A stretch of 64,000 nt of DNA from a virus (lineage: Duplodnaviria > Caudoviricetes). The stretch covers positions 435,573 through 499,572 of IMG/VR virus record IMGVR_UViG_3300049988_000286, one strand, 5' to 3'. The position numbers were made by a program, and so were the translations under genes. Of this stretch, positions 2,726-55,406 are shown one piece after another. The first letter of the stretch is position 1. The number at the start of each line of letters is the position of its first letter. The notes beneath the pieces are model-generated. The model had not been told where the DNA came from. It saw only the letters and a program-made list of their open reading frames with translations, and searched no databases.

Positions 2726-4120
2726 TTAGCGCATTGGACGCTGGTTTGTCTGACGGCTGCTGTGCGCGAGGCCTACGATGCGATCAACATCGGCTTCCGA
2801 GGTGTCACTGACTACCTCGTGGGCGAAATCGTCCTCGGGATCGCTCGGGAGGAGCACGTCCTCGGTGGTGAGATCGTCTTCTGCCTCGATGATCGGCTCC
2901 TCTGTGGGAACCATGTCGTCAAGCGGCTCATCGGTCATCTCGTCGCTCTCCGGCACCTCGACGTTCCAGCCCGCATCGGTCATGGTCACGATCACGTCGC
3001 TGATTACCTCATCGGCGATCGTCGATGCATCTTTCTCGTTCGGGTATTCGGTTCCGTCGAGAGCATCCTCGATCTCCTGACGGAGGTAGGAGACCAGTGA
3101 TCCGCGCAGGGTCTCGAAGTCGAGCACGCGATCTTCGTCGGCCAGCGTGTCGTCGTTGTAGTTGAAGTCATCACCGGAATCGGTCAGGAACGCGTCTGCG
3201 GAGAAATTGTCACGCACCGTTGAGAGAGCGATGTCGGTCGCCTGATCGAAGTCTCCGGTGTGCTCGTAGCCGGGCTGATGCTGACGGCGCAGGAGGCGCT
3301 CGACACGCTCGTCCTCGAAGATCGCAACACTGGACAGGCTGTCGAACCAGCGCCCAAATCCACGCATGGATTCCGTCATGATCACGCCGCCCTCGTTGTA
3401 GGTTTCCCAGATGTCCTTGGGCGCGACCGTTTCCTCAACCGCAACGGCATCAGCCTTATATGCGAGTTCAACAGCGCGCTTGGCGACGTTCTTGAGCAGC
3501 TTGCTCTCCGAACCATGCGAGAGCGCATCGGCGACGCGCGACAGCATGTTGGACATACCATCGGCGCGGACCTTGCTCACAAGGGCCATCAAACGACGCA
3601 TCATCTCATCCGGGATACGCTCGTTCTCGACGGGAGGGGAAACGAGGTGAAGGTACTGCCCGTTCTTGAACGCTTCCCAGTCAGCGGCTTCAACGCTGCA
3701 TCCCAGCGCAGGAAGCTCGATCATCGGGATTTCCTTCTTCTCATTCAGTGTCGTCATCGTCTCATCTCCTGTGTGGTTCTCTTCGATCGCGTTGGGGGCC
3801 AAGTCCTTCGGTTTCAGCACGCGATCCTGCTGACGAACATTGAAGCGGACATTGAATTTGCTCACGGTGACACGCATGGTTGCGATCAATCCCGTGATGG
3901 TGCGAGCGCTCGTTCCCTTCGAAAGGAACATCATCACCTTGCTGTTCTCGCCATCTTCATGGATCGACACCGTGATGTTGTTGGGCTGTGCGAAGAAACG
4001 TCGGGCTTCAGTAGGCTCATAGACCTGATTACCGTCGAAGTCGAAGATGTCTACGGTGTAGTCATAGCTACGCAGAATCTTGAACACCTCGGTAGCAAGG
4101 ATTGCGGGATTGAACATCAA
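2726..4120 (-). CDS. Hypothetical protein with acidic C-terminus, possibly virion/prohead associated
   Basis: 464 aa ORF, very Asp/Glu-rich C-terminal half, several xNE/xTE motifs resembling prohead protease sites; function not identified. Confidence 0.5.
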   Translation of the reverse strand: MMFNPAILATEVFKILRSYDYTVDIFDFDGNQVYEPTEARRFFAQPNNITVSIHEDGENSKVMMFLSKGTSARTITGLIATMRVTVSKFNVRFNVRQQDRVLKPKDLAPNAIEENHTGDETMTTLNEKKEIPMIELPALGCSVEAADWEAFKNGQYLHLVSPPVENERIPDEMMRRLMALVSKVRADGMSNMLSRVADALSHGSESKLLKNVAKRAVELAYKADAVAVEETVAPKDIWETYNEGGVIMTESMRGFGRWFDSLSSVAIFEDERVERLLRRQHQPGYEHTGDFDQATDIALSTVRDNFSADAFLTDSGDDFNYNDDTLADEDRVLDFETLRGSLVSYLRQEIEDALDGTEYPNEKDASTIADEVISDVIVTMTDAGWNVEVPESDEMTDEPLDDMVPTEEPIIEAEDDLTTEDVLLPSDPEDDFAHEVVSDTSEADVDRIVGLAHSSRQTNQRPMR

Positions 4121-4950
4121 TGAGCCTCTTGTGATTTATCGGTGTATTTAGCCATTTCCGTCCAGAACAAATCGAACAGTTGCTTCAAGCGTGAAATTGC
4201 TCGGCGGCGATTACGCTCGTTCAGTTTGGACCAATGCTGCTTCACGACGGCATGATCACTCCATTGCGCGACATGCTTTGCCATATAGTCTCGGAAGTCG
4301 CGGGGCAGATCATCGAAAAACTCGATTGCGGCAGAGTCGCGCTTCAACCAGCGAAGACGATCAAGCAGTGGCTCGGCAAGATTGTGGAAGAAAGCGTTCG
4401 TCTCCAAGGCGTCATTATGGTACAGGGTCGCTTGTGCATCGCGGTGGAGGCGCAACTCGGCGTCATCCATCTTCGATGTGTCGGTCTTCTTCATGGCGAC
4501 AATTGCCCGATTGGCGATCCCGGCTTTGTCCTTAAAGCGAGTGTAGTCGAGGATGTGTTGAAGTTCATGACGAAGTGTGGTGCGGACGTTGGTCGAGGTC
4601 ACAGAGAAGGACAATGACTGGAGAGTTGAGCAATCCGCCTGAACAGTCACGACGTAGCGCGCCCTGCCGATTGGCGTTTGCAGCACGGCGGCGGTTCCAC
4701 TGACATCAGGGTACTGGCTATCGATGAAGATGAGAAGGAAACTCTTGAGTATTGCAGGGACATCAAGAGCCTCACTCGCAATGCAATAATGGTCATTGCC
4801 ATTGTACTCTGCGGTGGCGAGATGCTTGAGCGAACCGCCCGACTTTGACAATTTGAACAAGTAACTGGACAAAGCTTGGATGAACTCATTAGCGAGATCG
4901 CTTCGGCGAAGATCACTCGCGGCGTCTTCGTAGAGGTTGGTGAGGCGCAT
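4117..4950 (-). CDS. Zincin-like (HExxH) protein with capsid-targeting-like N-terminus
   Basis: Start MRLTNLYEDA 4 nt after TAAATA; RHELQH motif plus downstream YHNDALETNA. Confidence 0.6.
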   Translation of the reverse strand: MRLTNLYEDAASDLRRSDLANEFIQALSSYLFKLSKSGGSLKHLATAEYNGNDHYCIASEALDVPAILKSFLLIFIDSQYPDVSGTAAVLQTPIGRARYVVTVQADCSTLQSLSFSVTSTNVRTTLRHELQHILDYTRFKDKAGIANRAIVAMKKTDTSKMDDAELRLHRDAQATLYHNDALETNAFFHNLAEPLLDRLRWLKRDSAAIEFFDDLPRDFRDYMAKHVAQWSDHAVVKQHWSKLNERNRRRAISRLKQLFDLFWTEMAKYTDKSQEAH

Positions 4951-4954
4951 CCAA

Positions 4955-6168: not shown

Positions 6169-6705
6169 ATGCGCCTTGCCCTCCTCGCCATTCTGCTACT
6201 CACGGGTTGCACCACCACTAGGGTGACTCTTCCCCAGCGTAGTGCCACCGAACAACTCCTCATCAGCGAAGCCGCCGAAGCTGCTGCTGTCGCGATCCAC
6301 CTCAATCTCGGCTCTCGCAAAGCTTTCCTCGATACCACCAACTTCGAGGGGGTGGATGCCCGCTACGCCATGTCGGCGATCCGGGAATCCCTGCTACGGC
6401 AGGGTAATGCGATCGTTGACAACCGTGACCTCGCCGATACCATCATTGAGGTGAGGGCAGGAGCGCTATCGATAGACAGTGCCACAAAGGTGCTCGGTAT
6501 TCCGAGCGTCGATGTCCCTCGCTTCTTTATCCCCGGCCTCAACATCGTTTCGCGCACCCGCAACACCGGCGTGGCCCGCTTCTCACTCTTTGCCTACGAT
6601 CGCGCTACCGGGAAACTGGTAGCCTTGGTGGCACCGGTGACCGGTTACAGCCGCCGTGACACCAAATCGTTTGGGAGCGTCATCGCGTGGAGCGCGCAGC
6701 GGTGA
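6169..6705 (+). CDS. Lipoprotein under a late promoter
   Basis: Signal peptide with lipobox LLTG-C; TAAATA (6159-6164) 4 nt before ATG. Confidence 0.7.
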   Translation: MRLALLAILLLTGCTTTRVTLPQRSATEQLLISEAAEAAAVAIHLNLGSRKAFLDTTNFEGVDARYAMSAIRESLLRQGNAIVDNRDLADTIIEVRAGALSIDSATKVLGIPSVDVPRFFIPGLNIVSRTRNTGVARFSLFAYDRATGKLVALVAPVTGYSRRDTKSFGSVIAWSAQR

Positions 6706-7523
6706 TGCGTGACCTCATCAATCTGATCGAGGGGGCGGGCGTCACCTACCGGGTTTCACAAGGACCAGACACCTACCGCTTCATTTACGATAATCATCCC
6801 AGCGTCTTCCATGACAAGAGGATCAAGTACTTTGATCCCAAGGAGAGCGTGAGGGAGATTCACGTGATCGCAGAAATGGGTGATCTCGTAATCGGCATGG
6901 CGGGAATGCAAGTCAATCCGCATGATACGGAGCAACTCTGGATTAAGTTCATTTCGGTCGATCCCGCCTATCAAGGGCGCGGCATCGGCAAGACTCTCCT
7001 GCGCCACATCTACCTCTATGCTGATGAGCATGGCTTCAAGATGGCACCGGGGAGTTTCTCACCGGAGGGAGAGCGTTTACGCCATCTTCATGATGAATGG
7101 GATAAGGAATTCCCACGCGTCGCCTATGACCGTGACAAGAACGGTAACTACATGAACTCCAAGGGTCAGATCGTCCGCATGAACGAGGGTCATTCGTGGA
7201 GCCAGTGGGTGCGGCCCGGCGACGAGATGGTCACCATCGATGTCGAGAAGGTCAGGGCATCATGGGCGCTCGACCGAGACTTCTATTTCGATGATGGTGA
7301 CCACCCCAACGCGATCCGGGGACGGGTGTCTCGTTTCAACCAATGGCTGGAGCGCGGCGAAGCAATCGGCTTGCCTGAACTGTGCCTCAATCCATCCGGG
7401 GAGATTACCTTCATCAACGGTCGCCATCGGTTCGTGGCGCTGATGCAACGCGGCGTCGAGAGTCTCCCCGTCGCGGTTCCGGTAGATCAGGCTGACGAGT
7501 TTCGTCTGCGGTTCGGAAAATAG
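6705..7523 (+). CDS. GNAT acetyltransferase fused to a ParB/Srx-like domain
   Basis: Start MRDLINLIEG (TGATG overlap); GNAT motif A VDPAYQGRGIGKTLL; C-terminal INGRHRFVAL ParB-like motif. Confidence 0.7.
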   Translation: MRDLINLIEGAGVTYRVSQGPDTYRFIYDNHPSVFHDKRIKYFDPKESVREIHVIAEMGDLVIGMAGMQVNPHDTEQLWIKFISVDPAYQGRGIGKTLLRHIYLYADEHGFKMAPGSFSPEGERLRHLHDEWDKEFPRVAYDRDKNGNYMNSKGQIVRMNEGHSWSQWVRPGDEMVTIDVEKVRASWALDRDFYFDDGDHPNAIRGRVSRFNQWLERGEAIGLPELCLNPSGEITFINGRHRFVALMQRGVESLPVAVPVDQADEFRLRFGK

Positions 7524-7524
7524 T

Positions 7525-7557
7525 TGTTGACACCCAAAAGCTCGTGTGAGATAAATA
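7525..7557 (+). promoter_or_regulatory. Promoter of the Tyr/His tRNA cluster (TTGACA plus ATAAATA)
   Basis: TGTTGACACCC-N15-ATAAATA; same architecture at 18108-18140 on the minus strand. Confidence 0.7.
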
Positions 7558-7562
7558 CTCCT

Positions 7563-7607
7563 ATGAACACGCAGAGCCATCACACCTATTATCATTACCA
7601 CGCGTAA
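7563..7607 (+). CDS. His/Tyr-rich leader peptide MNTQSHHTYYHYHA
   Basis: ATG 5 nt after TAAATA; 7 of the last 9 codons are His or Tyr; followed by alternative hairpins and Tyr/His tRNAs. Confidence 0.7.
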   Translation: MNTQSHHTYYHYHA

Positions 7608-7643
7608 GCGGGGTCGTGGTAACGCGTCCTCGTTTCGGGGACG
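7595..7643 (+). promoter_or_regulatory. Attenuator-like alternative hairpins
   Basis: 1:2 TTACCACG(7595-7602)/CGTGGTAA(7615-7622); 2:3 CGGGGTCGTG-GTAA-CGCGTCCTCG (7609-7632); 3:4 CGTCCTCG/CGGGGACG (7625-7643). No U-tract after 3:4. Confidence 0.55.
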
Positions 7644-7728
7644 ATGAAGGTGTGAAAGAGCCAGCGTGGCACTCTCCCCATAGTTGAACCCGCGAAGACG
7701 CAGATGATTTGCGTATCATGTTGCTAGT

Positions 7729-7812
7729 GGGTCGGCTGGACACGAGTGAGTCCACCTGACTGTAAATCAGACGCTTTGGCTGTGAGGGTGCAAATTCCTT
7801 CCCGGCCCACCA
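7729..7812 (+). tRNA. tRNA-Tyr(GTA)
   Basis: Acceptor GGGTCGG/CCGGCCC, A73, encoded CCA, anticodon loop CTGTAAA, long variable arm; T-loop reads TGCAAATT rather than TTCRANT. Confidence 0.85.
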
Positions 7813-7837
7813 AGCAACCAAAGAACAGTGATCAGGT

Positions 7838-7911
7838 GCGGCCGAGGCTGACTTGGATGAGGCGCGCGGTTGTGATCCGCGAGATAGTGAGTTCGAACCT
7901 CACCGGTCGCC
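7838..7911 (+). tRNA. tRNA-His(GTG), copy 1
   Basis: Acceptor GCGGCCG/CGGTCGC, anticodon arm CGCGG-TTGTGAT-CCGCG, T arm GTGAG-TTCGAAC-CTCAC; -1 base is T, C73, CCA not encoded. Confidence 0.85.
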
Positions 7912-7930
7912 CCTGAACACTGTTCACCTT

Positions 7931-8024
7931 GGGAGGTGCCCCCGCTCGCCGGTTGTAACCCGGTGGTCTCTAATAAGGGTGGGAAGCATTGAGGCGATGG
8001 GTGCAATTCCTACACCTCCCACCA
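7931..8024 (+). ncRNA. Atypical D-armless tRNA-like RNA with GTA anticodon
   Basis: 8-bp acceptor GGGAGGTG/CACCTCCC plus ACCA, 4-bp T stem, arm GCCGG-TTGTAAC-CCGGT, 9-nt linker instead of a D arm, ~33-nt variable region. Confidence 0.65.
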
Positions 8025-8027
8025 CGT

Positions 8028-8102
8028 GGCGTTGGTAGCTCAATGGTAGAGCGCTCGATTGTGGATCGAGATACGCGGGTTCGATCCCCGTCCTTCGCCC
8101 CA
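8028..8102 (+). tRNA. tRNA-His(GTG), copy 2
   Basis: G-1:C73, D arm TAGCTCAATGGTAGAGC, anticodon arm CTCGA-TTGTGGA-TCGAG, GGTTCGATCC T arm, CCA; two U-U mismatches in the acceptor stem. Confidence 0.88.
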
Positions 8103-8130
8103 GACCTTCTAACAAGTCCCTAAATATGTC

Positions 8131-8508
8131 ATGCGCAACTTCATCGATATCGTCAACGAAACTGTTATGTCGGATTCCGACACCTACTATTATGTTGTTG
8201 GGAAGGTGCGCGACCTCTATACGATGAGGGCAACAATCGACGGCTATTGCGAAGATGGCGTGATCTACCTCGATCTTATTTCGGTAGACGATGCCGGTAA
8301 CGGTGTCGGCACAGAGATGATGAAGGAAATATGCTTCAACGCGGATGATCACCACATCGCCATAGAGCTTGAAGCGGGATCACACGGTCGAGGCAATATC
8401 AGTCAGAGAAAGCTGGAAGATTGGTATGGCCGGTTTGGTTTCAAGAAAACTGGCGCGGTCTCAAGCGAAGACCATCCCTATATGCGCAGAGAACCCTCTG
8501 CTACTTAA
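8131..8508 (+). CDS. GNAT-family acetyltransferase with capsid-targeting-like N-terminus
   Basis: MRNFIDIVNE start 4 nt after TAAATA; DAGNGVGTEMM motif A and WYGRFGF. Confidence 0.7.
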   Translation: MRNFIDIVNETVMSDSDTYYYVVGKVRDLYTMRATIDGYCEDGVIYLDLISVDDAGNGVGTEMMKEICFNADDHHIAIELEAGSHGRGNISQRKLEDWYGRFGFKKTGAVSSEDHPYMRREPSAT

Positions 8509-8596
8509 ACATTACAACAACACAACAAGTTGTTGTTTTACATTCATGCAACTCTGATCTCTCCTGATAGTTATTACATCACATTAGGAGATAGTT

Positions 8597-8944
8597 ATGA
8601 AACGACTTGCACTTACCTTGGCCGCATTGGCTACCCTCGCCCCCGTCACTGCATCCGCGCAGCGCTACGACAATCGCTACGAGTTTCGCGGCTACGATCG
8701 CGGCGGCAATCCCGTCTACAGCTACCACGATCGGCGATACAATCGGGACTGGCGAAATGATCGTCGTGACTACCGTAGAGATCGCCAGTGCCGTGACGGC
8801 ACTACCGGAACGGTGATCGGCGCTATCGCGGGTGGACTATTGGGCAGAACCGTTGACACCCGTGGTGACCGAACGCTCGGTACGGTCGTCGGAGCCGGAG
8901 GTGGAGCCTTGGCGGGGCGGGCGCTGGATCGTAATTGCCGATGA
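8597..8944 (+). CDS. Glycine-zipper 2TM domain protein (alphaproteobacterial surface-antigen type)
   Basis: Signal peptide, R/D/Y-rich linker, GTVIGAIAGGLLG...GTVVGAGGGALAG zipper; strong SD AGGAG. Confidence 0.8.
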   Translation: MKRLALTLAALATLAPVTASAQRYDNRYEFRGYDRGGNPVYSYHDRRYNRDWRNDRRDYRRDRQCRDGTTGTVIGAIAGGLLGRTVDTRGDRTLGTVVGAGGGALAGRALDRNCR

Positions 8945-9494: not shown

Positions 9495-9593
9495 GTCGGC
9501 ATCTCCCTACGCGTTCTATCAACGAACTATCACACAGGTACGACTCCTTGTCAAAGCGCCTTCGTGCTGGCACCACCGCGTGAGGAGACGCCG

Positions 9594-11770
9594 ATGACCC
9601 GATATCAATTTGAATGCTCGATGCCCGAGTTGGCCGATGGTCGCGAGATCGACATCGAGGACGGCGGTCAGGCCGTGATCTTCCATCCCACGCCGGAATT
9701 CGAACAGGGCGGTGACGGCTTTTTCCACGTCCGGCTACAGAGTTGGGAAGACGGAGCCGCGAAACGCGAGGAATCGTTTGCAAAGGCGCACTCCTTGATG
9801 CGCGAGTTTTCGGGTCGTCGTCTCCGGGTCACTGTTGAAACCATTGACTGATCATCATAAGAAAGAGGCTCGCTTCAACCTCGTCATCATGGTAGCGAGC
9901 TTGATCTTCTCTGCACTGGCGCTTGGAATGTGGTTCTATGATTGATGGCATCGTTATCGCCGACCGAGTTCTAGCCGGGTCGGTGAAGGTCTGGCTCGAC
10001 GAGGAATGCCAGCGCTGCTACGAACACGTAGATTGCGATTACGATGATCTCGACAGGCTCATCTTGCGGCTCACCGATCAGCGGCTGGGTCACAATGTAG
10101 CGGTCGATGTCCTTGATCTCGATAACGACGATCGAGGCGTTTACGGCATCGTTTTGATCGAGGCCGCGCCGATAATCATGAATGAAGTGCTGGGGAAGCT
10201 GAATGCAAACAATGAAGGTTGAGCGCCTCGGCGAGGTGCGAGTCACCGCGCGGAGAGGCGATGGAAGTGAGTTCAGCTTCATGACCGCGACGCCTGATCG
10301 CTACATGGCTCCGGAACCGTTTAATCGTCGAGCGTGGCTACTGGAGCGTGAACAGCGCTACCTTCGCCTCCTAGACAACGATCTTACGAACGGCGCTCGG
10401 GCGCGTCTGGTCGAGGCTCTCGAATGGATCAGGAGTGAACTTGCTTCGCGCCATTGAGGCTATCCGGCTGGTGGGTTTCCGGCTCGGATTGTGGCGTGGT
10501 TTTCACGGACCCACGCTGCCGTGGAACCTACAAGAGCGCGTCTCTACCCTCTTCATCATCTGGCGCGATAGTCGGTTTGAGCGTCCCGTGCCCGCCGCTC
10601 GCGCCTTCTTCCTCCGCCATGGGATCGAGGTTCGTTTCAGTCATAAAGCGAAGGCGCGCCTTGCTCGCAAGCGCGATGTCACGGCCTACCAAGCCTTCGT
10701 CGATGCTGCCAAGAAAACCTTCCAGATCGACGATCATCTCCTCCCGATCTTCATCGATTGGTGCCGTGAGAATGAGTGTGAGATAGCTGTCCAGACGCCG
10801 GACCAGTATCACCCCCAGCATCGACCGTGGTCCAAAGTCACAGCGCTGGGTCAGGATAGTTTCACCCTGATCATGCTCGGTTGTGACATCTCGCCTAACC
10901 GATACACGGATGAAGCAACAATAAGGCGCGTCCACTAAACCCGTGATAGGGTCATGTCTCCTCACTACTAGGAGATTATTATGTCAATCGATCAAGATAC
11001 ACGCTTTTTCGCCGGAGCATCTTCACGCAGCTTTAGCGACGCTTCTGGTCCGAAGGCAAGCCGTGAGGACACCCCCGGCTTCGTCAACGCCTCGGATCAC
11101 CAGTTCACCGACATTTCATCGGAGGCCGAACGTGTCTACAATTTCGGGCAGAAGGGTTTCGTCCGCATCAATCGTCCGCTGCAACTCGCGGTGAGCGACT
11201 CGGGTGGCCACCGTATTTTCTCCGCCGATGGCCGCTCCCACTACATTCCCGCTGGCTGGATCGAGATCACATGGACGACGCGACCGGGTTCTCCGCACTT
11301 CGTTAAGTGACGGGGTATTGACGGGGTGGTGGTGCGCGCCTATCTCGCCGCCTCCACCCTTTAAGGAGATGGCTGCTATGCATCCTGTCGATGCCACAAG
11401 TCCGAAATGGCGGATCGCCAACAATTCGATCCGCATCCTGTACACGCACCCAACGACCCATTGGTCCTTGGCCTCCATGACCTACGACGACATCCCGGAT
11501 CGTATCGGGATACGTTGGAACGGCGATGTTACCGATCGTGGCGATCTCGGTTACCCGAGCGCTCGCGGCAATGGTGCGTGGTTCATCCTTCCCGATCCCC
11601 TTGACGGTCTCGTCCGCGCCATGATCCCGATCTGGAACGGCAACCATGGTGGGGTCGACGTTGCCCCACCCGCGTCGGCATTCGAGAAGATCATGGAAGG
11701 GATGCAGGACGCCATCGCACACGCGGGTGGTGATCACACCCGAGGCCGCATCGCCAATCAGAGCGCGTAA
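9594..11770 (+). other. Run of small hypothetical genes (9594-9851, 9938-10222, 10203-10457, 10435-10938, 10981-11310, 11378-11770)
   Basis: Co-oriented, tightly packed ORFs, several with SD (GAGGAG, AGGAG); no recognisable domains. Confidence 0.55.
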
Positions 11771-12495
11771 ATCGAACCCTTCGCCGTGTTGATCAGCGTG
11801 GCGAAGATTTCGTTCAACTCCTGTTCGAATTCTTCCACAATGCGGTGCTCGTCGATGTGGTTCAGTCGAACCGCTCCGCGAAGCATGTATTGAGCGAAGC
11901 ATTCCGGCAGGAGTTCGAATTGCGAGTTGAGCGTGCCGTCTCGGCAAGACTTGGACGTGCCGATCATACACGCCAGCGATTTTGGATTCTCATCCCAGAA
12001 CACACCACCGAGACGTGATAGCGTGCGCGCTAGAGCCGCGCTCGCTTCCCCGGACAACCTGTATGCCCCACTCGACACCGCGTTGTGGAACGGTCCTGAA
12101 CGGCCATTCTGGAAGGCGTGATACATGCGGTGGGCGATGATCCAACCCGTGAGTGGTTTGCGGGCGCTGCCTTCGTTCTGGGTGAAGATCACGCCGATGT
12201 TTTGGGGCTTCGGCTCGATCATTCCTTCAAGGAACGACAGAGAGGCGAGGACACCCTGCCGACCGTCATAGTCGCCCCCAATCGCGATCGAGAGCGCCGA
12301 CGTGGGATCGATCTTGAGATCGACGAGGTAGAGGTTGACATCGCAGACGCTGGACTGCCATAGCCGATGAATCTTCTCCAAGGCTTTTTTGTTCTGCACC
12401 AAGCGAACATCATCGGGACGAAACGACGAATCGCCGCCCATGTCCGAGAGTGGCGTGATGGAGAGAGGCATCTCGACGAGTTCGTGGTAGCGCAT
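11758..12495 (-). CDS. Hypothetical protein (HRxxH zincin-like variant) with capsid-targeting-like N-terminus
   Basis: MRYHELVEMP start 4 nt after TAAATA; WIIAHRMYHAF motif. Confidence 0.55.
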   Translation of the reverse strand: MRYHELVEMPLSITPLSDMGGDSSFRPDDVRLVQNKKALEKIHRLWQSSVCDVNLYLVDLKIDPTSALSIAIGGDYDGRQGVLASLSFLEGMIEPKPQNIGVIFTQNEGSARKPLTGWIIAHRMYHAFQNGRSGPFHNAVSSGAYRLSGEASAALARTLSRLGGVFWDENPKSLACMIGTSKSCRDGTLNSQFELLPECFAQYMLRGAVRLNHIDEHRIVEEFEQELNEIFATLINTAKGSIYAL

Positions 12496-14339: not shown

Positions 14340-14940
14340 TTAGCCGATCACGGTCATCAGGGGGCGGCGGGTGCTACCGTTGCCCGACTGGCCAAGCGCC
14401 ATTGGCTTACCTCCCGTGACGCTGATCTCCGCACGCTGGTAGCGATCCTGCGCTGCCTTTGGAATAGCTCGGTCGAGCATGTCGCGCAGACCCTCGATGC
14501 TCTCCTTGCCGCCAAGCCGGATAGTGCTCTCGTTGCTACCGCTTCGAACGATCAGACTCGCGCCACCGCGATCGTCGATGTCGATGGACAACGATGTGTC
14601 CCACGGCAGACTGCCCGTGAGTGTGATCGTCTCTTCAATCATTGGATATCTCCTCCGAGTCAGCGATGTCCCGGTCGGGCTGCTTCTCGCCCCCGATAAC
14701 GCGCCATTGGATACTCTCCAAGCCCCGATCCTCAATCTTCTCTGCGGCGCGGGTCAAGGCAGCGGCGAGGGCGAGCATGGTGGCGGAATTGAAACCGAGG
14801 TGAAGCGTCGCGATGCTGTCCCCGGTGCGGATTTGCAATTCAGAATACAGGGCAGAGCCGTTGCTCGCTTGATTGGTGATCACCGAGTAGGTGGAGCCCC
14901 AAGGGGCATAGTCGTGGCGGTAGAATTGTTCTTCAATCAT
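14340..14940 (-). other. Two hypothetical genes (14340-14642, 14635-14940)
   Basis: Overlapping co-oriented ORFs; SD GGAGGAG before 14642. Confidence 0.5.
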
Positions 14941-16310
14941 TAAAGAGATATAGGATGATCTTCAAAACCTTCAAGTACCCAAGCGGTTCTACTATTAACA
15001 TAAGGGTCTACACCAGTGATGACTTGCTGTGACATCCTCATCTTCTTCGGGAGATCAGTATAGATACTGACCGGTGGGCGTGCGTGATACAGTTCCTTCT
15101 TCATCTCGTAGGTGGGCATGAAGAAACGCTGTGTTCCACGCGCGCGCATCTTGCGAATGAAGTCGAGCAGCATGGCTTCGCTCAACCCTTTCAGCTTCTG
15201 ATTGACCTCCGGCTCCATGATCTTCGGCAGATCGGTTTGCACCTCATCGATCCAGCAATCGCGTCCGAAGAGCGTGAAACGCACCCAGCCCAGAGCAACG
15301 ACGGTATAACGTTCATCGCCTCCACCAAGCGACAGACCAGCCTTTGGTGGTTTGGGTGCGGCGGGTGGCTTGGGGTGGTTGCTCGCATAGTGGTAATTGA
15401 CCAGCGCTTTGCAATCGGGGATCGAGAGATCAAGGCCGTCTTTGATTGCTTCCACCGGGAGACCGAAGACACAGGCGATGTTCTTACGATCAAGGAAGAT
15501 ACGCTGATCGTCCTGACCATCCATCTTCCATTCGACGATGTAGTTGCGCGCCGATTTAACCACTCGCTCGATCGTCGTGGTCTCACTCGGGTTAGCTCGC
15601 AGATCATCGATTGAGATGTCTCGACCCCCGAGTTGTTTCACCAACGCGGAGAAGAATGGAGTGTTGCCCCAGCGCTGCTGCTTCAATTCCTTGACCGAGA
15701 TGCTCTCGCGATCGTTGGTTTCGAACCAGCGCATCAGGGCGAGTTGATCTTGGTTCAAGCCCGCGAGCGATTTGCGTTCGCCCTGACGAGGAAGGCGGTG
15801 CCCGCGTGAGAACTCGCGGCGACGGTCCTCGTTCTGCTTATCGAACAGCGTTTGAAGAGTGGTGTCGAAGTTGGAGAGTTGGCGCAAAACATGGATGTTG
15901 CCGGGAAACTCCTCAAACGCCTCACGCTGCAACTCGACGGGGATACGATCGAACATCTCACACGTCTGACGAATATTACGCTTCATCGCGATTGCGACAA
16001 CATCGAACGGGATCGGGCGCTTGACCTTGTACAGGACAGTCGGTCCGAATTTTTCAACTGCGAGTCGGAGACAAGTATCGCTAGGCTCCGGCAGGTATTC
16101 CAAAGCGGAAGCCCAGTTCTCACACGCGTATTCCTGTGCTTCCTCGTGGGGGTTCTTGATCGCTCGGATCAGCGCCACATTGCGACCGAGAGCAATCATC
16201 TGCACTTGCCTCGACGGCGCTTCCATATGACGAATATTGAAGGGATCGGCGTAAATGAGCGCGAGTTGCTCCGCCGTTGATTCTGACTGCTCGAAGATGG
16301 TTGAACGCAT
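14940..16310 (-). CDS. Multi-domain protein with capsid-targeting-like N-terminus
   Basis: MRSTIFEQ start 4 nt after TAAATA; N-terminal helical repeats; C-terminal WVRF...WIDEVQTD motif. Confidence 0.55.
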   Translation of the reverse strand: MRSTIFEQSESTAEQLALIYADPFNIRHMEAPSRQVQMIALGRNVALIRAIKNPHEEAQEYACENWASALEYLPEPSDTCLRLAVEKFGPTVLYKVKRPIPFDVVAIAMKRNIRQTCEMFDRIPVELQREAFEEFPGNIHVLRQLSNFDTTLQTLFDKQNEDRRREFSRGHRLPRQGERKSLAGLNQDQLALMRWFETNDRESISVKELKQQRWGNTPFFSALVKQLGGRDISIDDLRANPSETTTIERVVKSARNYIVEWKMDGQDDQRIFLDRKNIACVFGLPVEAIKDGLDLSIPDCKALVNYHYASNHPKPPAAPKPPKAGLSLGGGDERYTVVALGWVRFTLFGRDCWIDEVQTDLPKIMEPEVNQKLKGLSEAMLLDFIRKMRARGTQRFFMPTYEMKKELYHARPPVSIYTDLPKKMRMSQQVITGVDPYVNSRTAWVLEGFEDHPISL

Positions 16311-16313
16311 CCC

Positions 16314-17587
16314 CTATTTAGGGGCGGGCTCGAAATGCAGCTTGCGGCCACGCCGCGACAGGTAGCCGACTACCTTACCGGGAAGACGGGAATCCGAGTA
16401 GGAGTCGCAGTTGGGACCGAATTCGAAAACCGCAGAGGGCGCGGCCTCTGTGATATCACGGAAGTCACCCGCAATCGCGTAGCAGACATTGGGAAGGGCC
16501 AAGCGAGCATTCTCGGCGTGATGATGCATCAGCGCTACCCGGCGGCGATAGACTCCGCTCTCGTTCCAGAACGAGTTCTTATACGCGTAGGCGAAACGAC
16601 CAATGGTGCGGCCAGCGACGACTTTGGTCTGCGACCGCAAGGTGTAGGTGTAGACGCCCATCATTGTTCTCCTTGACGCACCTCCTACCCTCAATAGTTC
16701 GGTGCGTCAAGGATAATTGTTTATTCCCAGCCCGCCTTGCGGAGGAATTTGTTGATCGCAGCGTCGTCGGCGTACTCCCAGCTATCCACCGAGGTTACGA
16801 AGCTGTCGTGCTGGAAACCCTTATGGTTTATCAGGCAGGCGTCACCATCATTGTCCACCTCGATGACCAACCCCACCTTGTCTCCTGTTTCGATGAGGGT
16901 ACCGACGCGGATTTCACCCTCGCCTCCGGGAATGCTGTCGGCATCGAGGACGAGCGCCATCAGGGCCTTCACCGCTCCGGTCTGGCAGCCGAAGTCAGCC
17001 TCACCGATGATCCGCGCGGCCTCCGCTACCTTCGGGGGCAGGGTCTCACCCGCGATCCCGTCACGGGCACTGCGGGTCCGATCCCGAATCTTCTCCGGAT
17101 CGATCAGGTCGCGTAACTTCATCACTTTCCTCCATCTCTCGCTCGATAACGATTTTGTCGTGCTGACGCTGACGGCGAGCGTGCTCACGCTTCGCCTCGC
17201 CGCGCTGCGCCGACGAGTACATCTCGTCGGTTTGTGCGGTATCTACCTGTTTGTCAGGTCGGAAGTAGTTGCTTGGGCTTCCCATGCCGCGAGGGGTAAC
17301 GCGACGCGGTGGGGGCGTCAATCGGATCGAGTCAGATCGAAGATGGAGACCTTCGGGGCAGCGCGATCCTCTTCCACCATTTGGGTATGATGGGTCGGCT
17401 CGCCGAACAGTTTCTGGTTCAGCTTCTCGAAATTCTCGACACTGGCCTTGGCGCGCTTGAAGGCAGGATCATCGCTGCAACCCCGCATCGCATCCATGAA
17501 CGACGAACGGTCCGCCACCGCATAGGAGAGCGCGGAGCGGATGATGTTGAGATCATTGGCGGTGATGGTGGGCTTACGATGCGCCAT
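16314..17587 (-). other. Hypothetical genes (16314-16664, 16721-17122, 17318-17587)
   Basis: Co-oriented ORFs with SD-like elements; no recognised domains. Confidence 0.5.
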
Positions 17588-17803: not shown

Positions 17804-17888
17804 TGGTCCCCCGGACGAGAATCGAACTCGCTGATGCTTTCGCAAACAGGCGTGAGAAACCTGCGTCCTGCCATTAGACTTCCGGGGG
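17804..17888 (-). tRNA. tRNA-Glu(CTC) with long variable arm
   Basis: Acceptor CCCCCGG/CCGGGGG, A73, CCA; anticodon arm CAGGT-TTCTCAC-GCCTG; variable arm containing TGC-GAAA-GCA; T arm GCGAG-TTCGATT-CTCGT. Confidence 0.85.
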
Positions 17889-17889
17889 A

Positions 17890-17973
17890 TGGCCGCGCTG
17901 ACGGGAATCGAACCCGCTTCTGCTTTCGCAACAGGAGTGAAAGTCCTGCGTCCGCCCATTAGACTTCAGCGCG
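17890..17973 (-). tRNA. tRNA-Glu(TTC) with long variable arm
   Basis: Acceptor CGCGCTG/CAGCGCG, G73, CCA; anticodon arm CAGGA-CTTTCAC-TCCTG; variable arm TGC-GAAA-GCA; T arm GCGGG-TTCGATT-CCCGT. Confidence 0.85.
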
Positions 17974-18005: not shown

Positions 18006-18069
18006 AGAAACAGAACCAAAATCACCCGCGCCGTCGAGGCGCGTGAAAGCGCACTCAACCGATCGAGCG
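18006..18069 (-). terminator. Attenuator: protector 1:2, antiterminator 2:3, terminator 3:4 plus U-tract
   Basis: 1:2 CGCTCGA-TCGG-TTGAGTG (18069-18052); 2:3 GAGTGCGC-TTTCAC-GCGCCTC (18056-18036); 3:4 CGCGCC-TCGAC-GGCGCG (18043-18027) then GGTGA-TTTTGGTTCTGTTTCT. Confidence 0.75.
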
Positions 18070-18102
18070 TTCGCGTTCCATGAGGGTGTAGGTCGTGTTC
18101 AT
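18055..18102 (-). CDS. Leader peptide MNTTYTLMERERSIG (GAA-CGC-GAA-CGC)
   Basis: ATG 5 nt after TAAATA; same ATGAACACG start as the His/Tyr leader; the 3' end overlaps attenuator helix 1:2. Confidence 0.65.
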   Translation of the reverse strand: MNTTYTLMERERSIG

Positions 18103-20649: not shown

Positions 20650-20652
20650 CGG

Positions 20653-21675: not shown

Positions 21676-21682
21676 CCACTAT

Positions 21683-22674: not shown

Positions 22675-22737
22675 CGCGTTGCTCCTTACCGAACTATCTA
22701 CGGCTAATCGTTTAGCGAGTCAAGCGCTAAATACCGC

Positions 22738-41086: not shown

Positions 41087-41765
41087 AGTGGCTATAGCCC
41101 TTGACTAGCCCGACGCGGAACTCGGTCACTGCTACGCTTTTATCAAACTGCCCGGTCAACCGATCGGGGAAATCTGCTACCTGCCATGCGGCATGATCCC
41201 ATGGTTGCACCGAGCGTGCCGGTGCTCCCTTCCATGCGCCACCGCCAGATGAACTGATTTTGCTCTTCGGCCAATAGGTCTCTGGATCGAGCCCAGCGAT
41301 GAAGTCGGCACTCGCCCTCTGCGCGTCTTCGTACTCGGAAAACGGTCCAAGTGTCGTGGAGGTCTTCTCGTCATCTGCCGTCCACCAACTGACTTCCGCA
41401 TGTAGGACCGATTCGCGACGGGGATAGATCGTCACCGGGATGTTCTTGCCACCACGCCGCATCACCATGGCGGTTCGGTGTCGGCCTTCGTGGCCCAGAA
41501 CAGCCCCGGATGGAAAGGCGACGTTGAGGAAAGGCATTTCGAAACGCCCAAAGCCTTCATCGCGTCCACGCTCATCCCGGTATTGATCCGCATCGAGGGG
41601 GAAAGGGCGGGCAAGGATATCTGCGAGGACTTCGGGGGTGGAGGTCAACCGTAGGAAATCCATGGGAGCCATTGTGATGATGAAGGCCCCGTAGCTACCA
41701 CGAACGCGACCCATGGTGTTGCGCACTAGCGGGAGATTGCTTTCAAGTAAATCACAGAGCAGCAT
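41076..41765 (-). CDS. ParB/Srx-like protein with capsid-targeting-like N-terminus
   Basis: MLLCDLLES 4 nt after TAAATA; MPFL...GHEGRHRTA motif. Confidence 0.6.
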   Translation of the reverse strand: MLLCDLLESNLPLVRNTMGRVRGSYGAFIITMAPMDFLRLTSTPEVLADILARPFPLDADQYRDERGRDEGFGRFEMPFLNVAFPSGAVLGHEGRHRTAMVMRRGGKNIPVTIYPRRESVLHAEVSWWTADDEKTSTTLGPFSEYEDAQRASADFIAGLDPETYWPKSKISSSGGGAWKGAPARSVQPWDHAAWQVADFPDRLTGQFDKSVAVTEFRVGLVKGYSHFRR

Positions 41766-41973: not shown

Positions 41974-43164
41974 GTGAACATTCTCGAACGCCTTCGTGAG
42001 CGCGGCCTTTTCAAGGACGCGACCTTCACTGCTGCGCCGGAGGTGACCACCGCGTATGTGGGCTTCGACCTCACCGCGCCGTCGCTCCACGTCGGTTCGC
42101 TCATCCCCCTGATGGCGATGCGCTGGCTCGCGATGTCAGGGCACCGGGTCTTCGCACTACTCGGGGAGGCGACGACGCGGATCGGCGATCCCTCGGGTAA
42201 GGACGAGACGCGCCGAATGCTCGGTGAGGATGAGATCGAGCGCAATCGTCAAGGCATCGAGGCGGTCATTCGCCGCATCGTCCCAGACGCGACGATCGTC
42301 TCCAACGGCGACTGGTTCAACGGCGTCGATCCATCCTTCATGTCGTTCCTCGTCGATTATGGTCCGCACTTCACGGTCAATCGCATGATGGCCATGGATT
42401 CGGTGAAGCGTCGGCTCGATCGGCACCAACCCCTGACCTTCCTCGAATTCAGCTACTCGCTCTTACAGGCCGTGGACTTTCGAGAGATGCATCTGCGCCA
42501 CGGCGTTGATCTCCAGATCGGTGGATCGGACCAGTGGGGCAACATCGTCTCCGGTGTGGAGGTAGTGCGTCGCCGCGACGGGAAGGAGGTCATGGGTCTC
42601 ACCACGCCGCTGCTCCTCGATCGCGAGGGCAACAAAATGGGTAAGTCACAGGGTCGCCCGGTCTGGCTCGACGCAGAGATGACACCGGTCTTCGACTTCT
42701 TCCAGTTCTGGCGCAACTGCGCGGATGAGGATGTAGAGCGCTTCTACCTGATGTTCACCACCGTGGCGAAAGTGTCCATCGACGCGATGGTGCGCAGCCG
42801 CGTCGCGCCCCTCGATATCAATCGTGTAAAGAAGGCCTTGGCGTTCGACATCACCGAAGTGGTGCATGGCCGGGAAGCAGCGCGCGCCGCACTCGCCCAT
42901 GCGGAAGCGGTCTTCGAGCGCGGTGATACCACCAAACTCACACCGTCGATGACCCTGACGGCCCCGCGATCTCTCGTGGAGGTCATGGTGGCGCTCGGAC
43001 TCGCGGAGTCGAAGTCGGCGGCTCGGCGGCTCATCGCCGGTAACGCCGTGTCTCTCGATGGTGAAAAGATCAGTCAAGATCGCCTGATTGATCACGATGT
43101 CGTAATTCGTGCTGGTAAGAAGGCACCCTTGATGGTAGAGTTCGCTCCGGAGACAAATCAATGA
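41974..43164 (+). CDS. tyrS: Tyrosyl-tRNA synthetase
   Basis: AYVGFDLTAPSLHVG (HIGH), QIGGSDQWGNI, KMGKS, C-terminal S4-like domain. Confidence 0.95.
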   Translation: MNILERLRERGLFKDATFTAAPEVTTAYVGFDLTAPSLHVGSLIPLMAMRWLAMSGHRVFALLGEATTRIGDPSGKDETRRMLGEDEIERNRQGIEAVIRRIVPDATIVSNGDWFNGVDPSFMSFLVDYGPHFTVNRMMAMDSVKRRLDRHQPLTFLEFSYSLLQAVDFREMHLRHGVDLQIGGSDQWGNIVSGVEVVRRRDGKEVMGLTTPLLLDREGNKMGKSQGRPVWLDAEMTPVFDFFQFWRNCADEDVERFYLMFTTVAKVSIDAMVRSRVAPLDINRVKKALAFDITEVVHGREAARAALAHAEAVFERGDTTKLTPSMTLTAPRSLVEVMVALGLAESKSAARRLIAGNAVSLDGEKISQDRLIDHDVVIRAGKKAPLMVEFAPETNQ

Positions 43165-48760: not shown

Positions 48761-49519
48761 GTGAGGATATCGTTTGGTATTCTCACCTTCATGTTCTCAC
48801 CACTATTCACCGAGGTCGCCGACACGACGGCGAAAGAGTACCGCGCCGTAGAGGTAGTACCAGAAGGTCATGAGCCGCTCGCGGAACCGTTCAACAATCT
48901 TTCGCTGCGCCAAAAGCCCGACGATCAGCCGTCCCCATATGAGATCGCCCGCCACTATAGCGGCTCTGGTGGACAGTCTGTGCTCCCGCCCGTCGCGGGC
49001 AAACGCCTGAAACTGGTATTAAAAACGGTAGAGACTGACCGAGCAGTGTCCTCGATCGAGGAAGCCGAACTGGCGGTGCTCAACCTCACCTACCAGTCTA
49101 CGAATGTTATGCGCTTCGACGGTAAACGACACGGGTCGTGTGTCGGCGACATCAACGCGGCCTTCGCCATTCTGATCAACCGTGCCGCGAACGTCATTGC
49201 AGCGCGCACCCGGCGCGGAGCGGGTAACTTGGTGTTCATGCACCCCGACAGCCTCAAGATCATCACATCGATGACCACCAATGCCTTCAGGGCGTCGAGC
49301 GAGGAAGAAACGGTAGGCCTATGGGCCATGGCCGGGGTGTTAAACGGCTGCATGGTCGTCTACACCAATCCCGACTTCACCATGGACCGCGCGGTGGTGG
49401 TGTATCAGGGTTGGATCGGCGACGGTCCCGCGCAGTTGCTCAATCGCGACGGAAAAACCTTCCTCGCCATTCACGACAACGCCCTCGATTATGTCGGCAC
49501 GGTGCTGATCGAACAGTGA
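48761..49519 (+). CDS. Truncated T4 gp23/gp24-like capsid protein paralog
   Basis: INRAANVIAARTRRGAGNLVFMHP and AGVLNGCMVVY blocks resemble the gp23 C-terminal half; only ~250 aa; start uncertain. Confidence 0.7.
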   Translation: MRISFGILTFMFSPLFTEVADTTAKEYRAVEVVPEGHEPLAEPFNNLSLRQKPDDQPSPYEIARHYSGSGGQSVLPPVAGKRLKLVLKTVETDRAVSSIEEAELAVLNLTYQSTNVMRFDGKRHGSCVGDINAAFAILINRAANVIAARTRRGAGNLVFMHPDSLKIITSMTTNAFRASSEEETVGLWAMAGVLNGCMVVYTNPDFTMDRAVVVYQGWIGDGPAQLLNRDGKTFLAIHDNALDYVGTVLIEQ

Positions 49520-53246: not shown

Positions 53247-54655
53247 TGGTAGCCCACATTCCGCCTGACATCTCCTACGGTTTGGAGTGCTCCGTAGAGT
53301 GCTTCGACACCACGTCGGATGTCTCGACCTATTACTACCGCTTCAACGAAGTCAATCTCGCGGCCCTCGTCGATGAGCGAGAGACTTTCGACCGCGATGA
53401 TGTCAATGAGAGCTTGCGATCGTTGTCGCGCCTCTACATGCGACCGTACGATGACTGGTTCTACACCCAAGCCTCGTTGGAGGAGCGCACATGGTGCGTA
53501 GCATCGGCGTCCCGGAGTTTCGGCCGCAAGTCAGCCGAGATCATCGACTCGATGGTGACCCGCTATGTCTCCGACATGCTGTCGAGCGGCCTCGATCCTC
53601 TCACGAGACGCTCACAGGAAGAGTGGCTCGATCGGTCGCGCATGATGACCCACGCGGGCAAACTCGCCGCCAAAGTCGCGCATAAGATCGCCGTCGTGGG
53701 TGAGGAAGAAGTCCTCTCCGCGATCCGCCGCCCTGCTGCCTACTTCGAGCGTCTGCCGGTCCTTCCACAGCCGCCCCGCCCAACCGTGCTTCGAGGACCG
53801 GACGGCGAGCCGATCTGGACCGATCTGGAACCTGTGGATCAAGTCCTCGGTGGCTTTGAGACGCACGGGCATCCTCTGCTGGGCCGTTCCTACACGGCGG
53901 GCCAAAGAGCCAAGCTGGTGGCCAAGGCTCGCCGCAAGCATCAGTCGGTGCTCAAGAAGTCATCAGCCTTCTTGTCGCGCCTGATTGGCACGAACAATGT
54001 CACGATGTTCGTCGGCGGCAAGTCGATCCGCGTCGAAGGTCAGCGCTTCGTCTTTGAGTTGAAGAAGGCCAACATTCTCGCAGAGAACCACGGCGCGCTG
54101 TCGATCTCCGTCTTGGACAAAGAAAGCGATCGTCGCCTTTTCGATCTTTGCTGGTACGTCGAGCGCACTCCGGCCTTGGATCAAATCTCCGCGCTCGTCA
54201 TGGCTGTCCGCGCCGGGGAGGAAGATGAGATCATCCGCGTCGGTAACATGTTCTCGATCGATCACGTGGTCTGTGACAGCGTGCCGCATCTCAACCTCGC
54301 GATCCCGGAACGTTCATTCGGTGGTGGCATCCTTGGTGCGGCGGGTGGCGAAGACGGGATGATGCACGTCTTCCCCGGCACCACCGAATATCATCGCAGC
54401 CATCCCGACCTCTACCAATCATTCGCACGACGCTGCGCCGCTAGGATGCATCCCCGGCGATTCCCCGTCTCGCTCCGGGAATACTTCCGCCCCCATGCAC
54501 CAGAGACGATCCGGCCGTTCGGCGATCGGGTAGGAAGGGAACTTCTACCAGATCGCTACGAGCCGGTGCTACCCGCGATCGAGGAGGAGCCGATGCGCGT
54601 CCGTCTTGATATCGTGGACCGGGTTATCCAACAGCAGGGTGTCGAGATGGCCTAA
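53246..54655 (+). CDS. Hypothetical protein with LCW...P.LDQ...GEE...GN block
   Basis: 469 aa, TGATG-coupled; TAA stop overlaps the next TAAATA box. Confidence 0.6.
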   Translation: MVAHIPPDISYGLECSVECFDTTSDVSTYYYRFNEVNLAALVDERETFDRDDVNESLRSLSRLYMRPYDDWFYTQASLEERTWCVASASRSFGRKSAEIIDSMVTRYVSDMLSSGLDPLTRRSQEEWLDRSRMMTHAGKLAAKVAHKIAVVGEEEVLSAIRRPAAYFERLPVLPQPPRPTVLRGPDGEPIWTDLEPVDQVLGGFETHGHPLLGRSYTAGQRAKLVAKARRKHQSVLKKSSAFLSRLIGTNNVTMFVGGKSIRVEGQRFVFELKKANILAENHGALSISVLDKESDRRLFDLCWYVERTPALDQISALVMAVRAGEEDEIIRVGNMFSIDHVVCDSVPHLNLAIPERSFGGGILGAAGGEDGMMHVFPGTTEYHRSHPDLYQSFARRCAARMHPRRFPVSLREYFRPHAPETIRPFGDRVGRELLPDRYEPVLPAIEEEPMRVRLDIVDRVIQQQGVEMA

Positions 54656-54662
54656 ATAGGCC

Positions 54663-55406
54663 ATGCTGTTGAGAGATTTGTTCGAGGCCGAGGCCGATGA
54701 TCGCGAGGCCCGCGACGAGGCCAACGAGGCGTTCGACCGGATATACGATTACGTGAGCGCGCGCGCGGACTATCTCCCGGATGTCTTGCAAACCAGCACG
54801 GCGCTCGGAGGATCGTTCGTCATGAAGGCGGAGCGTGCCGGGGTGTCGAACAACCACGATCTCCTGATCGTCTTTTCGCCGCGACAAGCCGGTGGGGTTA
54901 AGGGTGCCTTCGGGCACGCTGGTATCCGTCCCCTGATCATGCTCGTGGCACTGAAAGGCCCGAATGATCTTCAATACCTCGACACCCGCCTAGCAGGAAG
55001 GAGGGGCACCTTCGTCCATGAATGGATGCACTACCGCGCTTGGGCTCGTAATCAAACCCCGAGCCAATCGTCCAGTGATGTCGGACCGGGCTCTCCCCAA
55101 TACTACAACCACACCGAAGAGTTGAACGCCTACTATCAGGAAGCCGTGCAGGGATTTGAGCGATTGGTGCGGAACGTCATCGACCTTGGCCACCGCGATA
55201 CCGCAATTGAGATGTGGGGGAGCAAATCAACGCAGGAACTCGTCCACTACGTTGTCACGAGAGAACTCGGTGAGGACTTTCGCCTCGCCCTCACACCCGC
55301 CAACCTTCAACGCATTAAGAAGCGGATCAGCCGGTTCATCGACCAGACGATCCGCCCCCTGTTCGTGTCAGCGCCAGAGCAGCATCAGGCCGATGCGCTG
55401 GCCTAG
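54663..55406 (+). CDS. Zincin-like (HExxH) protein with capsid-targeting-like N-terminus
   Basis: MLLRDLFEA 4 nt after TAAATA; FVHEWMHY and YYNHTEELNAY. Confidence 0.65.
   Translation: MLLRDLFEAEADDREARDEANEAFDRIYDYVSARADYLPDVLQTSTALGGSFVMKAERAGVSNNHDLLIVFSPRQAGGVKGAFGHAGIRPLIMLVALKGPNDLQYLDTRLAGRRGTFVHEWMHYRAWARNQTPSQSSSDVGPGSPQYYNHTEELNAYYQEAVQGFERLVRNVIDLGHRDTAIEMWGSKSTQELVHYVVTRELGEDFRLALTPANLQRIKKRISRFIDQTIRPLFVSAPEQHQADALA

Follow-up and report, generated by a model that had tools for sequence, protein, structure and literature searches.

The final 64 kb (64,000 nucleotides, hereafter the window) of a 499,572-bp phage record in IMG/VR (IMGVR_UViG_3300049988_000286; guanine plus cytosine (GC) content 57%) contain thirteen late genes whose products begin with a common peptide tag of about 8 to 10 residues, and curation of the whole genome raised the number of tagged genes to 56. 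At a probability of roughly 0.6, we regard the tag as a capsid-targeting propeptide in the style of phage T4, here much expanded in number and coupled to a late promoter that leaves the mRNA leaderless. The tag has the consensus M-R-x-W/F-I-N/D-L-V/I-(x)-E, with a second form M-L-L-x-D-L-F-E, and 55 of the 56 tagged genes belong to transcription units headed by the hexamer TAAATA.

The only sequencing run with the complete window DNA was a leaf metagenome. The genome encodes about 30 homologues of T4 open reading frames (ORFs), including the large terminase (gp17), the portal (gp20) and gp46/gp47, the last two adjoined by a weakly matching gp55-like ORF. The capsid protein shares 66% identity with its counterpart in Sinorhizobium phage Phosso (469 kb) and 61-63% with those in 121Q, PBECO4, phAPEC6 (61%) and Rak2-like jumbo phages, which places the phage, by sequence, in the Rak2/121Q-like group, apart from the phiKZ-type giant phages.

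An earlier note on the window had listed thirteen tagged N-termini, eleven with their own TAAATA box and two in second genes of TAAATA operons. All thirteen translated as listed, the promoter positions agreed with that division, and no further convincing tag was found by searching the window; the scale implied by thirteen genes in one window was too low, given the 56 genes of the genome and the tags in related uncultured phages described below. The genes are named here by the position of their first base. ATG follows the end of TAAATA by 4 nt (N4) at 4950, 8131, 12495, 16310, 20649, 21675, 27145, 41765 and 54663 and by 5 nt (N5) at 18787. The tagged genes and the two untagged operon heads are as follows, with an arrow at the end of each tag.

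4117-4950, minus strand: tagged late gene, 277 amino acids, MRLTNLYE↓DA; CTAAATA N4; HELQH in the body; sub-threshold DUF6525 match only in Pfam.
6169-6705, plus strand: untagged lipoprotein-like gene starting MRLALLAILLLTGC; TAAATA-led; operon head for 6705.
6705-7523, plus strand: tagged second gene of the operon (start/stop overlap of 1 nt), 272 amino acids, MRDLINLIE↓GA; GNAT domain and a C-terminal ParB/Srx-like (PFIN) segment.
8131-8508, plus strand: tagged late gene, 125 amino acids, MRNFIDIVNE↓TV in the 10-residue register; CTAAATA N4; weak GNAT match.
11758-12495, minus strand: tagged late gene, 245 amino acids, MRYHELVE↓MP; CTAAATA N4; body without assignment, though with two further paralogues in this genome and one homologue in the relative G001.
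14940-16310, minus strand: tagged late gene, 456 amino acids, MRSTIFE↓QS, the weakest tag; CTAAATA N4; N-terminal region matching PHROGs of unknown function.
18476-18787, minus strand: tagged late gene, 103 amino acids, MRDYIDMITE↓AH, in the register of T4 MKTYQEFIAE↓A; CTAAATA N5; one RNA-library contig falls within it.
19303-20649, minus strand: tagged late gene, 448 amino acids, MRYHNLVE↓ARRNPDLN; CTAAATA N4; putative ART-like fold with a helical insert and a helical C-terminal half.
20653-21675, minus strand: tagged late gene, 340 amino acids, MLIRDLFE↓AV; ATAAATA N4; weak PcfJ-like lead.
22738-24237, plus strand: untagged gene, 499 amino acids; TAAATA-led; operon head for 24240.
24240-25409, plus strand: tagged second gene of the operon behind AGGAG, 389 amino acids, MRAIQIIE↓ARSNPALN; paralogue of 19303-20649.
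27145-27387, plus strand: tagged late gene, 80 amino acids, MRNFIDIIE↓GA; CTAAATA N4; body without assignment.
37727-38473, minus strand: tagged late gene, 248 amino acids, MRHFITIME↓AI; TAAATA 26 nt upstream, then the ribosome-binding site GAGGGAG.
41076-41765, minus strand: tagged late gene, 229 amino acids, MLLCDLLE↓SN; CTAAATA N4; weak ParB/Srx-like lead around GHEGRHR.
54663-55406, plus strand: tagged late gene, 247 amino acids, MLLRDLFE↓AE; CTAAATA N4; HEWMH; weak ImmA/IrrE, SprT and LPD23 leads.

The recurrence of the tag is beyond chance. A profile of the tag scored at least 12 bits at 58 of the 19,934 possible N-termini of the genome versus none of the same N-termini after shuffling, and the core motif occurred 28 times directly after ATG versus once internally in 145,530 residues. 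Tag length ranged from 7 to 11 residues, chiefly 8-10, with registers 8 and 9 commoner than 10. Nearly all tags (53 of 56) end in [LIVM]-x-Glu, with Leu at P3 in 35, Ile at P3 in 16 and Ala at P1′ in 19; within the window, P3 was Leu or Ile in 12 of the 13 tags and Val in one. The baseline for Leu/Ile-x-Glu at the equivalent place was 5.2% among 725 untagged genes. Sequence conservation ends abruptly after the tag Glu.

The end of the tag resembles the cleavage site expected of the head protease of this phage. A T4-type prohead protease of the gp21 family (genome positions 213874-214494; Peptidase_S77, 92 bits; cut-off 27) and a gp23-type major capsid protein (Gp23, 243 bits) are encoded in the genome, and alignment of the capsid protein with T4 gp23 placed LME↓A at the known T4 maturation site LTE↓A; the same site reads LME↓T in Phosso and LTE↓S in phAPEC6. 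The homologue of the scaffold (genome positions 214596-215840, outside the window), which is 29% identical to phAPEC6 gp226c (E value 5e-31), has 22 Leu/Ile-x-Glu sites in 414 residues, a density of 0.053 versus 0.0108 genome-wide that ranks first among the 374 called proteins of at least 150 amino acids. The bodies of the tagged proteins had a density of 0.0083, slightly under the average. A dense scaffold and a single site per tag are as expected if a protease with T4 specificity shreds the scaffold and trims each cargo protein once; on these indirect grounds, Leu/Ile-x-Glu is the likely cleavage motif of the phage protease. Motif density in the scaffold may serve as a simple sequence read-out of probable protease specificity in other phages as well. 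The scaffold itself starts with MPKTIEEILNE↓T, which resembles a tag; it scored 1.8 bits on the profile and was not used as evidence.

A short gp23-like paralogue of 252 amino acids was also observed in the window (48761-49519, plus strand). It aligns only with residues 237-314 of the capsid protein, at 43% identity, and is possibly a relative of the vertex protein or a remnant.

These features bear on two other explanations at the protein level. The tag could be a different sorting or handling signal, such as an amphipathic helix for a phage chaperone, an AAA+ translocase, a membrane-bound assembly site or another compartment, which would need neither binding to the scaffold core nor cleavage by the prohead protease. 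A strictly N-terminal, late and peptide-selected tag fits any protein-recognition signal, this one has no detectable homology to the T4 tag, and a role in moving proteins into heads has been proposed for the AAA+ proteins BCS1 and ClpX of the same jumbo-phage subgroup (PMC7824862). Such a signal nevertheless leaves unexplained why 53 of 56 tags end in the motif of the capsid cleavage site, five-fold enriched in the scaffold, and why the residue that follows is most often Ala, matching the Glu-Ala bonds of T4; we therefore consider it unlikely. Still less probable is a role as a pro-peptide or timing device that a protease removes, either a zymogen cap or a degron, and that holds late enzymes inactive or unstable, with neither packaging nor injection. 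The cleavage-type end of the tag and the resemblance of several bodies to potentially toxic enzymes (ART-like, ParB/Srx-like and HExxH) would suit such a device, but T4-type prohead proteases work inside the prohead (PMC5694885), so that a substrate cut by them is already in the head, and inhibition of 44 unrelated folds by 8-10 residues is improbable.

The TAAATA hexamer is assigned as the late promoter, probably of the gp55 type. It occurs 171 times in the genome and is followed by ATG after exactly 4 nt in 75 cases and after 5 nt in 27 (102 in total). About half of the genes at TAAATA-N4/5 (46 of 103) carry the tag. Among the untagged ones are the genes of the tail sheath (299 bits), of an endolysin (263 bits), of a tail or tail-fibre protein, of two virion structural proteins, one of which scored 307 bits, and, inside the window, of the large terminase TerL; it is because these are sheath, virion, endolysin and terminase genes that the hexamer can be read as a late promoter. 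An ATAAATA motif before structural genes, together with a gp55-like factor, has been described in the related phages CBB and GAP32 (PMC5259590). The association between tag and TAAATA, previously pointed out for the window, also held when the tag profile was applied genome-wide, as the figure of 55 in 56 indicates. Three tagged genes have a GGAG-type ribosome-binding site between their start codon and a TAAATA box 19-26 nt upstream, indicating that the hexamer acts as a promoter rather than a translation signal.

Since a gap of 4-5 nt between box and ATG has no space for a leader, we infer that late mRNAs are mostly leaderless, with transcripts starting at the ATG. The tight spacing thus predicts leaderless mRNAs from T4-type late transcription, which we did not find described in the literature for this phage group. 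The two phyllosphere RNA libraries that contain a relative were available as assembled contigs only, a handful of them on the window, and give neither transcript ends nor strand.

The 4 nt on either side of TAAATA showed a mild tendency to be complementary, perfectly so at 10 of 103 sites and with a mean of 1.38 pairs versus 1.14 with shuffled partners. Examples in the window are CCCCTAAATAGGGG (16311-16324, minus strand) and GGCCTAAATAGGCC (54649-54662, plus strand).

The coincidence of tag and leaderless start, with 47 of the 56 tagged genes beginning 4-5 nt after TAAATA, raises the question of whether the conserved element is a feature of the RNA or of translation, for instance a downstream element that aids 70S initiation on leaderless late mRNAs, with the peptide as a by-product. 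This explanation is very improbable. Third positions were low in information and six-fold codons varied freely: among 19 tags of one register, Arg was encoded by CGA, CGC, CGT and AGA, and Leu by CTG, CTA, CTC and TTG. About ten tagged genes have a Shine-Dalgarno site or stand second in an operon and are not leaderless, and about half of the leaderless late genes (among them sheath, terminase and endolysin) start with unrelated N-termini. The peptide is moreover kept over a range of 31-57% GC. Free codon choice, the genes with ribosome-binding sites, the untagged leaderless genes and the GC spread together largely refute an explanation at the RNA level, and selection acts on the peptide.

The same tag was found among relatives. 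A 415-kb IMG/VR relative with 55% GC has about 20 tagged genes in the same TAAATA-N4 layout, and its orthologues keep the type of tag with a changed tag sequence. In the relative G001, TAAATA-N4-ATG followed by an Arg codon occurred at 12 sites, and at none in Phosso or phAPEC6. A relative with 51% GC, found through the family of 20649, has tags on a DnaJ-domain protein and on others. Jumbo-phage fragments of 31-45% GC also have genes that begin with MR(N/D)WINLxE, one or two such tags being present per 16-67 kb. No hallmark genes were found on these AT-richer tag-bearing fragments, whose records are just 5-19% complete. The tag thus predates this genome, extends beyond it and is greatly expanded within it.

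The bodies behind the tags are diverse. The 56 proteins span 57 to 682 amino acids and form 44 BLAST clusters, including seven small paralogue groups. Among the thirteen of the window, BLAST related 20649 to 24240 (36% identity over 222 amino acids), 6705 to 8131 through the GNAT segment (E value 5e-4) and the C-terminus of 6705 to 41765 (E value 3e-4, shared GxxGRHR). In Pfam and PHROGs, no family of known function was assigned to 10 of the thirteen proteins and no match whatever was obtained for 8. Apart from the bodies with leads given here, six have no assignable family in the two databases.

The earlier note had seen two GNAT bodies, two with HExxH, two ParB/Srx-like ones and an ART-like pair. 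One of the GNAT assignments is firm (6705; Acetyltransf_1, 46.7 bits, cut-off 20.7) and the other weak (8131; 18 bits, cut-off 23.6), and the HExxH motif is present in both 4950 (HELQH) and 54663 (HEWMH). The ParB/Srx-like bodies gave weak matches alone, with PFIN at 21 bits for the C-terminus of 6705, under the cut-off of 27; the corresponding leads for 41765 had weak Atlas scores of just 0.85-0.86, and a PDB sequence search with this protein returned no match.

An ART-like identity of the 20649/24240 pair is plausible at the level of the fold, with weak matches and without an evident canonical triad. Neither protein had a Pfam match, and a profile search with the 20649 family gave a chance-level match only. 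Homologues of this family occur solely in uncultured phages, many of which keep the N-terminus M-R/K-x-x-E-I/L-x-E-A-R-R-N-P; among GenBank phages there was no match save one 735-kb uncultured record. The top solved match of the conserved-domain model (predicted local distance difference test score, pLDDT, 82.5) was a protein segment of cyanophage A4 (Foldseek E value 4.4e-3, Z 6.8, 159 residues), which belongs to the capsid-internal pre-ejectosome (PMC12002296). Lower-ranked matches, consistent with one another but weak, were ParT (Z 4.7), NatT (Z 4.8), PARP (Z 4.6), DUF3990 and RES, and comparison with ART-PolyVal was also weak (E value 5e-3 to 8e-2). The invariant residues of the family are Y63, Y65, D224, H231, E234 and Q237, in which no canonical H-Y-E or R-S-E order was evident. 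The domains ART, GNAT, ParB/Srx and zincin-like peptidase are hallmarks of polyvalent proteins, which are proposed to be injected with phage DNA (PMC5512222); with three of the four domain assignments weak, the cargo repertoire fits such an injected set.

The mature part of 37727-38473 is very acidic (isoelectric point (pI) 4.3; Asp plus Glu 20%, Lys plus Arg 5%). In composition, though on no evidence of fold, it resembles DNA-mimic anti-restriction proteins.

That all tagged genes are one expanded paralogous family with bodies diverged past recognition is scarcely tenable, for although there are seven small paralogue groups among the 56 and the 20649 family keeps its N-terminus and the adjoining RRNPxLN in many uncultured phages, the 44 BLAST clusters have clearly different folds and lengths from 57 to 682 amino acids, the GNAT protein above the cut-off has untagged homologues everywhere, and conservation stops sharply past the Glu.

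A natural variant bounded by two tags was found in a relative with 90-99% identity. A contig from this relative (run X2; a single contig at depth 4) connects window positions 21650 and 20623. Taken at face value on the coding strand, the first 26 nt of 21675, which comprise promoter, ATG and MLIRDLFE, are fused in frame to 20649 from codon 9 on, giving the product MLIRDLFE-ARRNPDLN..., and the junction lies at the shared TCGAAGC, the Glu-Ala junction of both tags. The stretch absent or replaced in the relative consists of the 21675 body followed by the 20649 promoter and tag. The variant is a lead: one cargo gene may have been cleanly lost or gained, or a cassette replaced, with the boundaries in either case at the two tag ends. 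More tentatively, and at somewhat short of even odds, the segment of about 45 bp that holds the late promoter, the start codon and 8-10 tag codons may be a recombination-competent general address label in a clade of huge phages, such that a reading frame of any kind set behind it would yield a late protein that is packaged in the head and injected.

The capsid-targeting reading, which the earlier note had advanced by analogy with T4, would work as follows. Tagged genes would be transcribed late from the gp55-type TAAATA promoter, mostly without an mRNA leader. The tag would then bind the new protein to the scaffolding core during prohead assembly, and the T4-type prohead protease would cleave on the C-terminal side of the Glu in Leu/Ile-x-Glu, with Ala the most frequent next residue, setting the mature protein free inside the head. 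The cargo, comprising an acetyltransferase and ART-like, ParB/Srx-like and HExxH proteins with presumed effects on the host, would enter the next cell along with the DNA. Late context, N-terminal position, the Leu/Ile-x-Glu end, the protease, the capsid site, the scaffold density, selection on the peptide, the types of cargo domain and the tag-bounded variant all agree with this reading, and its predictions that can be tested at the level of sequence all appear borne out. The part that did not stand is homology to the T4 tag (1.2 bits), and the absence of the tag from cultured relatives also counts against it.

Several points weigh on the other side of the capsid-targeting reading. The nearest cultured relatives, Phosso and phAPEC6, lack the tag, with four chance-level matches each, and, one GNAT excepted, homologues of the cargo, so that the virion proteomes of cultured relatives lend no support. 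Homology to the T4 tag was rejected because the profile gives IPII and IPIII 1.2 bits, a rank of about 400 among 3,030 N-termini, and the head-core proteins of this phage likewise fail to score with it. The tagged proteins are not basic like the internal proteins of T4 (median pI 6.4 versus 6.0 for all genes), and 56 cargo species would be several times the T4 load delivered by the targeting-sequence route. The phage is uncultured and known from sequence alone; packaging, cleavage and injection are inferred. A host-modifying or anti-defence role is conjectural, 8 of the thirteen bodies having no assignable fold or family.

The purpose of the hundreds of unknown genes in huge phages forms the backdrop of these results. 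If the tag marks head cargo, the motif would sort about 7% of the genes (56 of about 757 called) as arriving with the DNA, the class likeliest to disarm defences or seize the cell before phage genes are expressed. It would also supply a sequence rule for effectors in metagenomes, about 44 families, unrelated to one another, as candidates for screening, and a short natural tag for loading foreign proteins into large capsids. Should the cassette be the general label suggested above, about 50 effector species predictable from sequence would be delivered to the host, the largest such cargo known, and the injected proteomes of uncultured phages could be read from DNA. Neither this tag, nor a set this large, nor the fusion of promoter and ATG was found described in the literature.

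Other features of the window were observed alongside the tagged genes. Two tiny ORFs with the common head ATGAAYAC lie directly after TATAAATA-type boxes (7563-7607, plus strand, and 18055-18102, minus strand). The first, MNTQSHHTYYHYHA, is upstream of two tRNA-His genes (7838-7913 and 8029-8102), and the second, MNTTYTLMERERSIG, is upstream of two tRNA-Glu genes on the minus strand (17804-17973); some codons in each match the downstream tRNAs, which fits a leader-peptide attenuator. A tyrosyl-tRNA synthetase gene is present at 41974-43164 on the plus strand (tRNA-synt_1b, 207 bits, plus the SYY C-terminal and S4 domains). In the relative L085 (51% GC), a TAAATA-led HNH gene (MQDHRKPPKPQYYD; 8310-8765, minus strand) and a gene starting MDQSRA (9592-9993, plus strand) match a pair of this genome at 62728 and 63187, indicating that local gene order is conserved in the clade.

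Comparison with T4 reveals the closest likeness. In T4, the first 10 residues of IPIII are enough for packaging, with residues 4 and 7 needed for targeting and 8 and 10 for processing, and the tag may be a general route by which T4-like phages load diverse proteins (PMC9026906); the internal proteins of T-even phages are a diverse set with only the targeting sequence in common (PMC3012670). The T4 genome itself has the starts MKTYQEFIAE↓A (IPII, IPIII), MLKEQLIAE↓A (gp22) and MAKINELLRE↓S (gp24). All 11 of the 10-residue tags described here have an aromatic or hydrophobic residue at position 4, I/L/M at 7, I/L/M/V at 8 and Glu at 10. Among the 9-residue tags, W/L/F/I occupies position 4 in 20 of 24 and L/I position 7 in all 24; the 8-residue tags deviate from the T4 pattern at position 4. 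In both systems, otherwise unrelated late proteins open with a stretch of about 10 residues that ends in Leu/Ile-x-Glu, often with Ala next, and both phages encode a protease of the gp21 family together with a capsid protein of the gp23 type and have TATAAATA-type late promoters. In contrast to T4, the tag has Arg in place of Lys at position 2 and Ile at position 5, about 56 proteins carry it instead of a handful, and their bodies are mostly of enzyme size and not basic. The likeness therefore appears to be one of design, pattern and register rather than of demonstrable descent.

The late promoter shares its core motif with the Rak2-like promoters of CBB and GAP32 (ATAAATA) and with T4 (TATAAATA, gp55), and a gp55-like factor is encoded here too. 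It differs from both in that 102 of the 171 copies stand exactly 4-5 nt before ATG; T4 late genes have leaders with ribosome-binding sites, whereas the promoter here abuts the start codon.

Large head cargoes have precedents. Radiation-sensitive internal head proteins have been reported in phAPEC6 and 121Q (PMC7247149), a precedent within the clade, and in a different clade of giant phages about 50 proteins are packed into the head (PMC5694885). As in phiKZ, 201phi2-1 and SPN3US, where a homologous protease cleaves many of the tens of packed head proteins behind a Glu (PMC5694885), the cargo here would be numerous and cleaved; the motif in those phages is Ser/Ala/Gly-x-Glu, however, and their propeptides are long and dissimilar, without a known common short tag. 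The same domain repertoire, in late or virion gene contexts, is found in the polyvalent proteins that phages and conjugative elements encode (Iyer et al. 2017), and two window proteins have leads, ART-PolyVal and LPD23, that stem from that set. In polyvalent proteins the domains form one giant fused polypeptide, whereas the domains found here are encoded by separate genes, each with its own promoter and tag.

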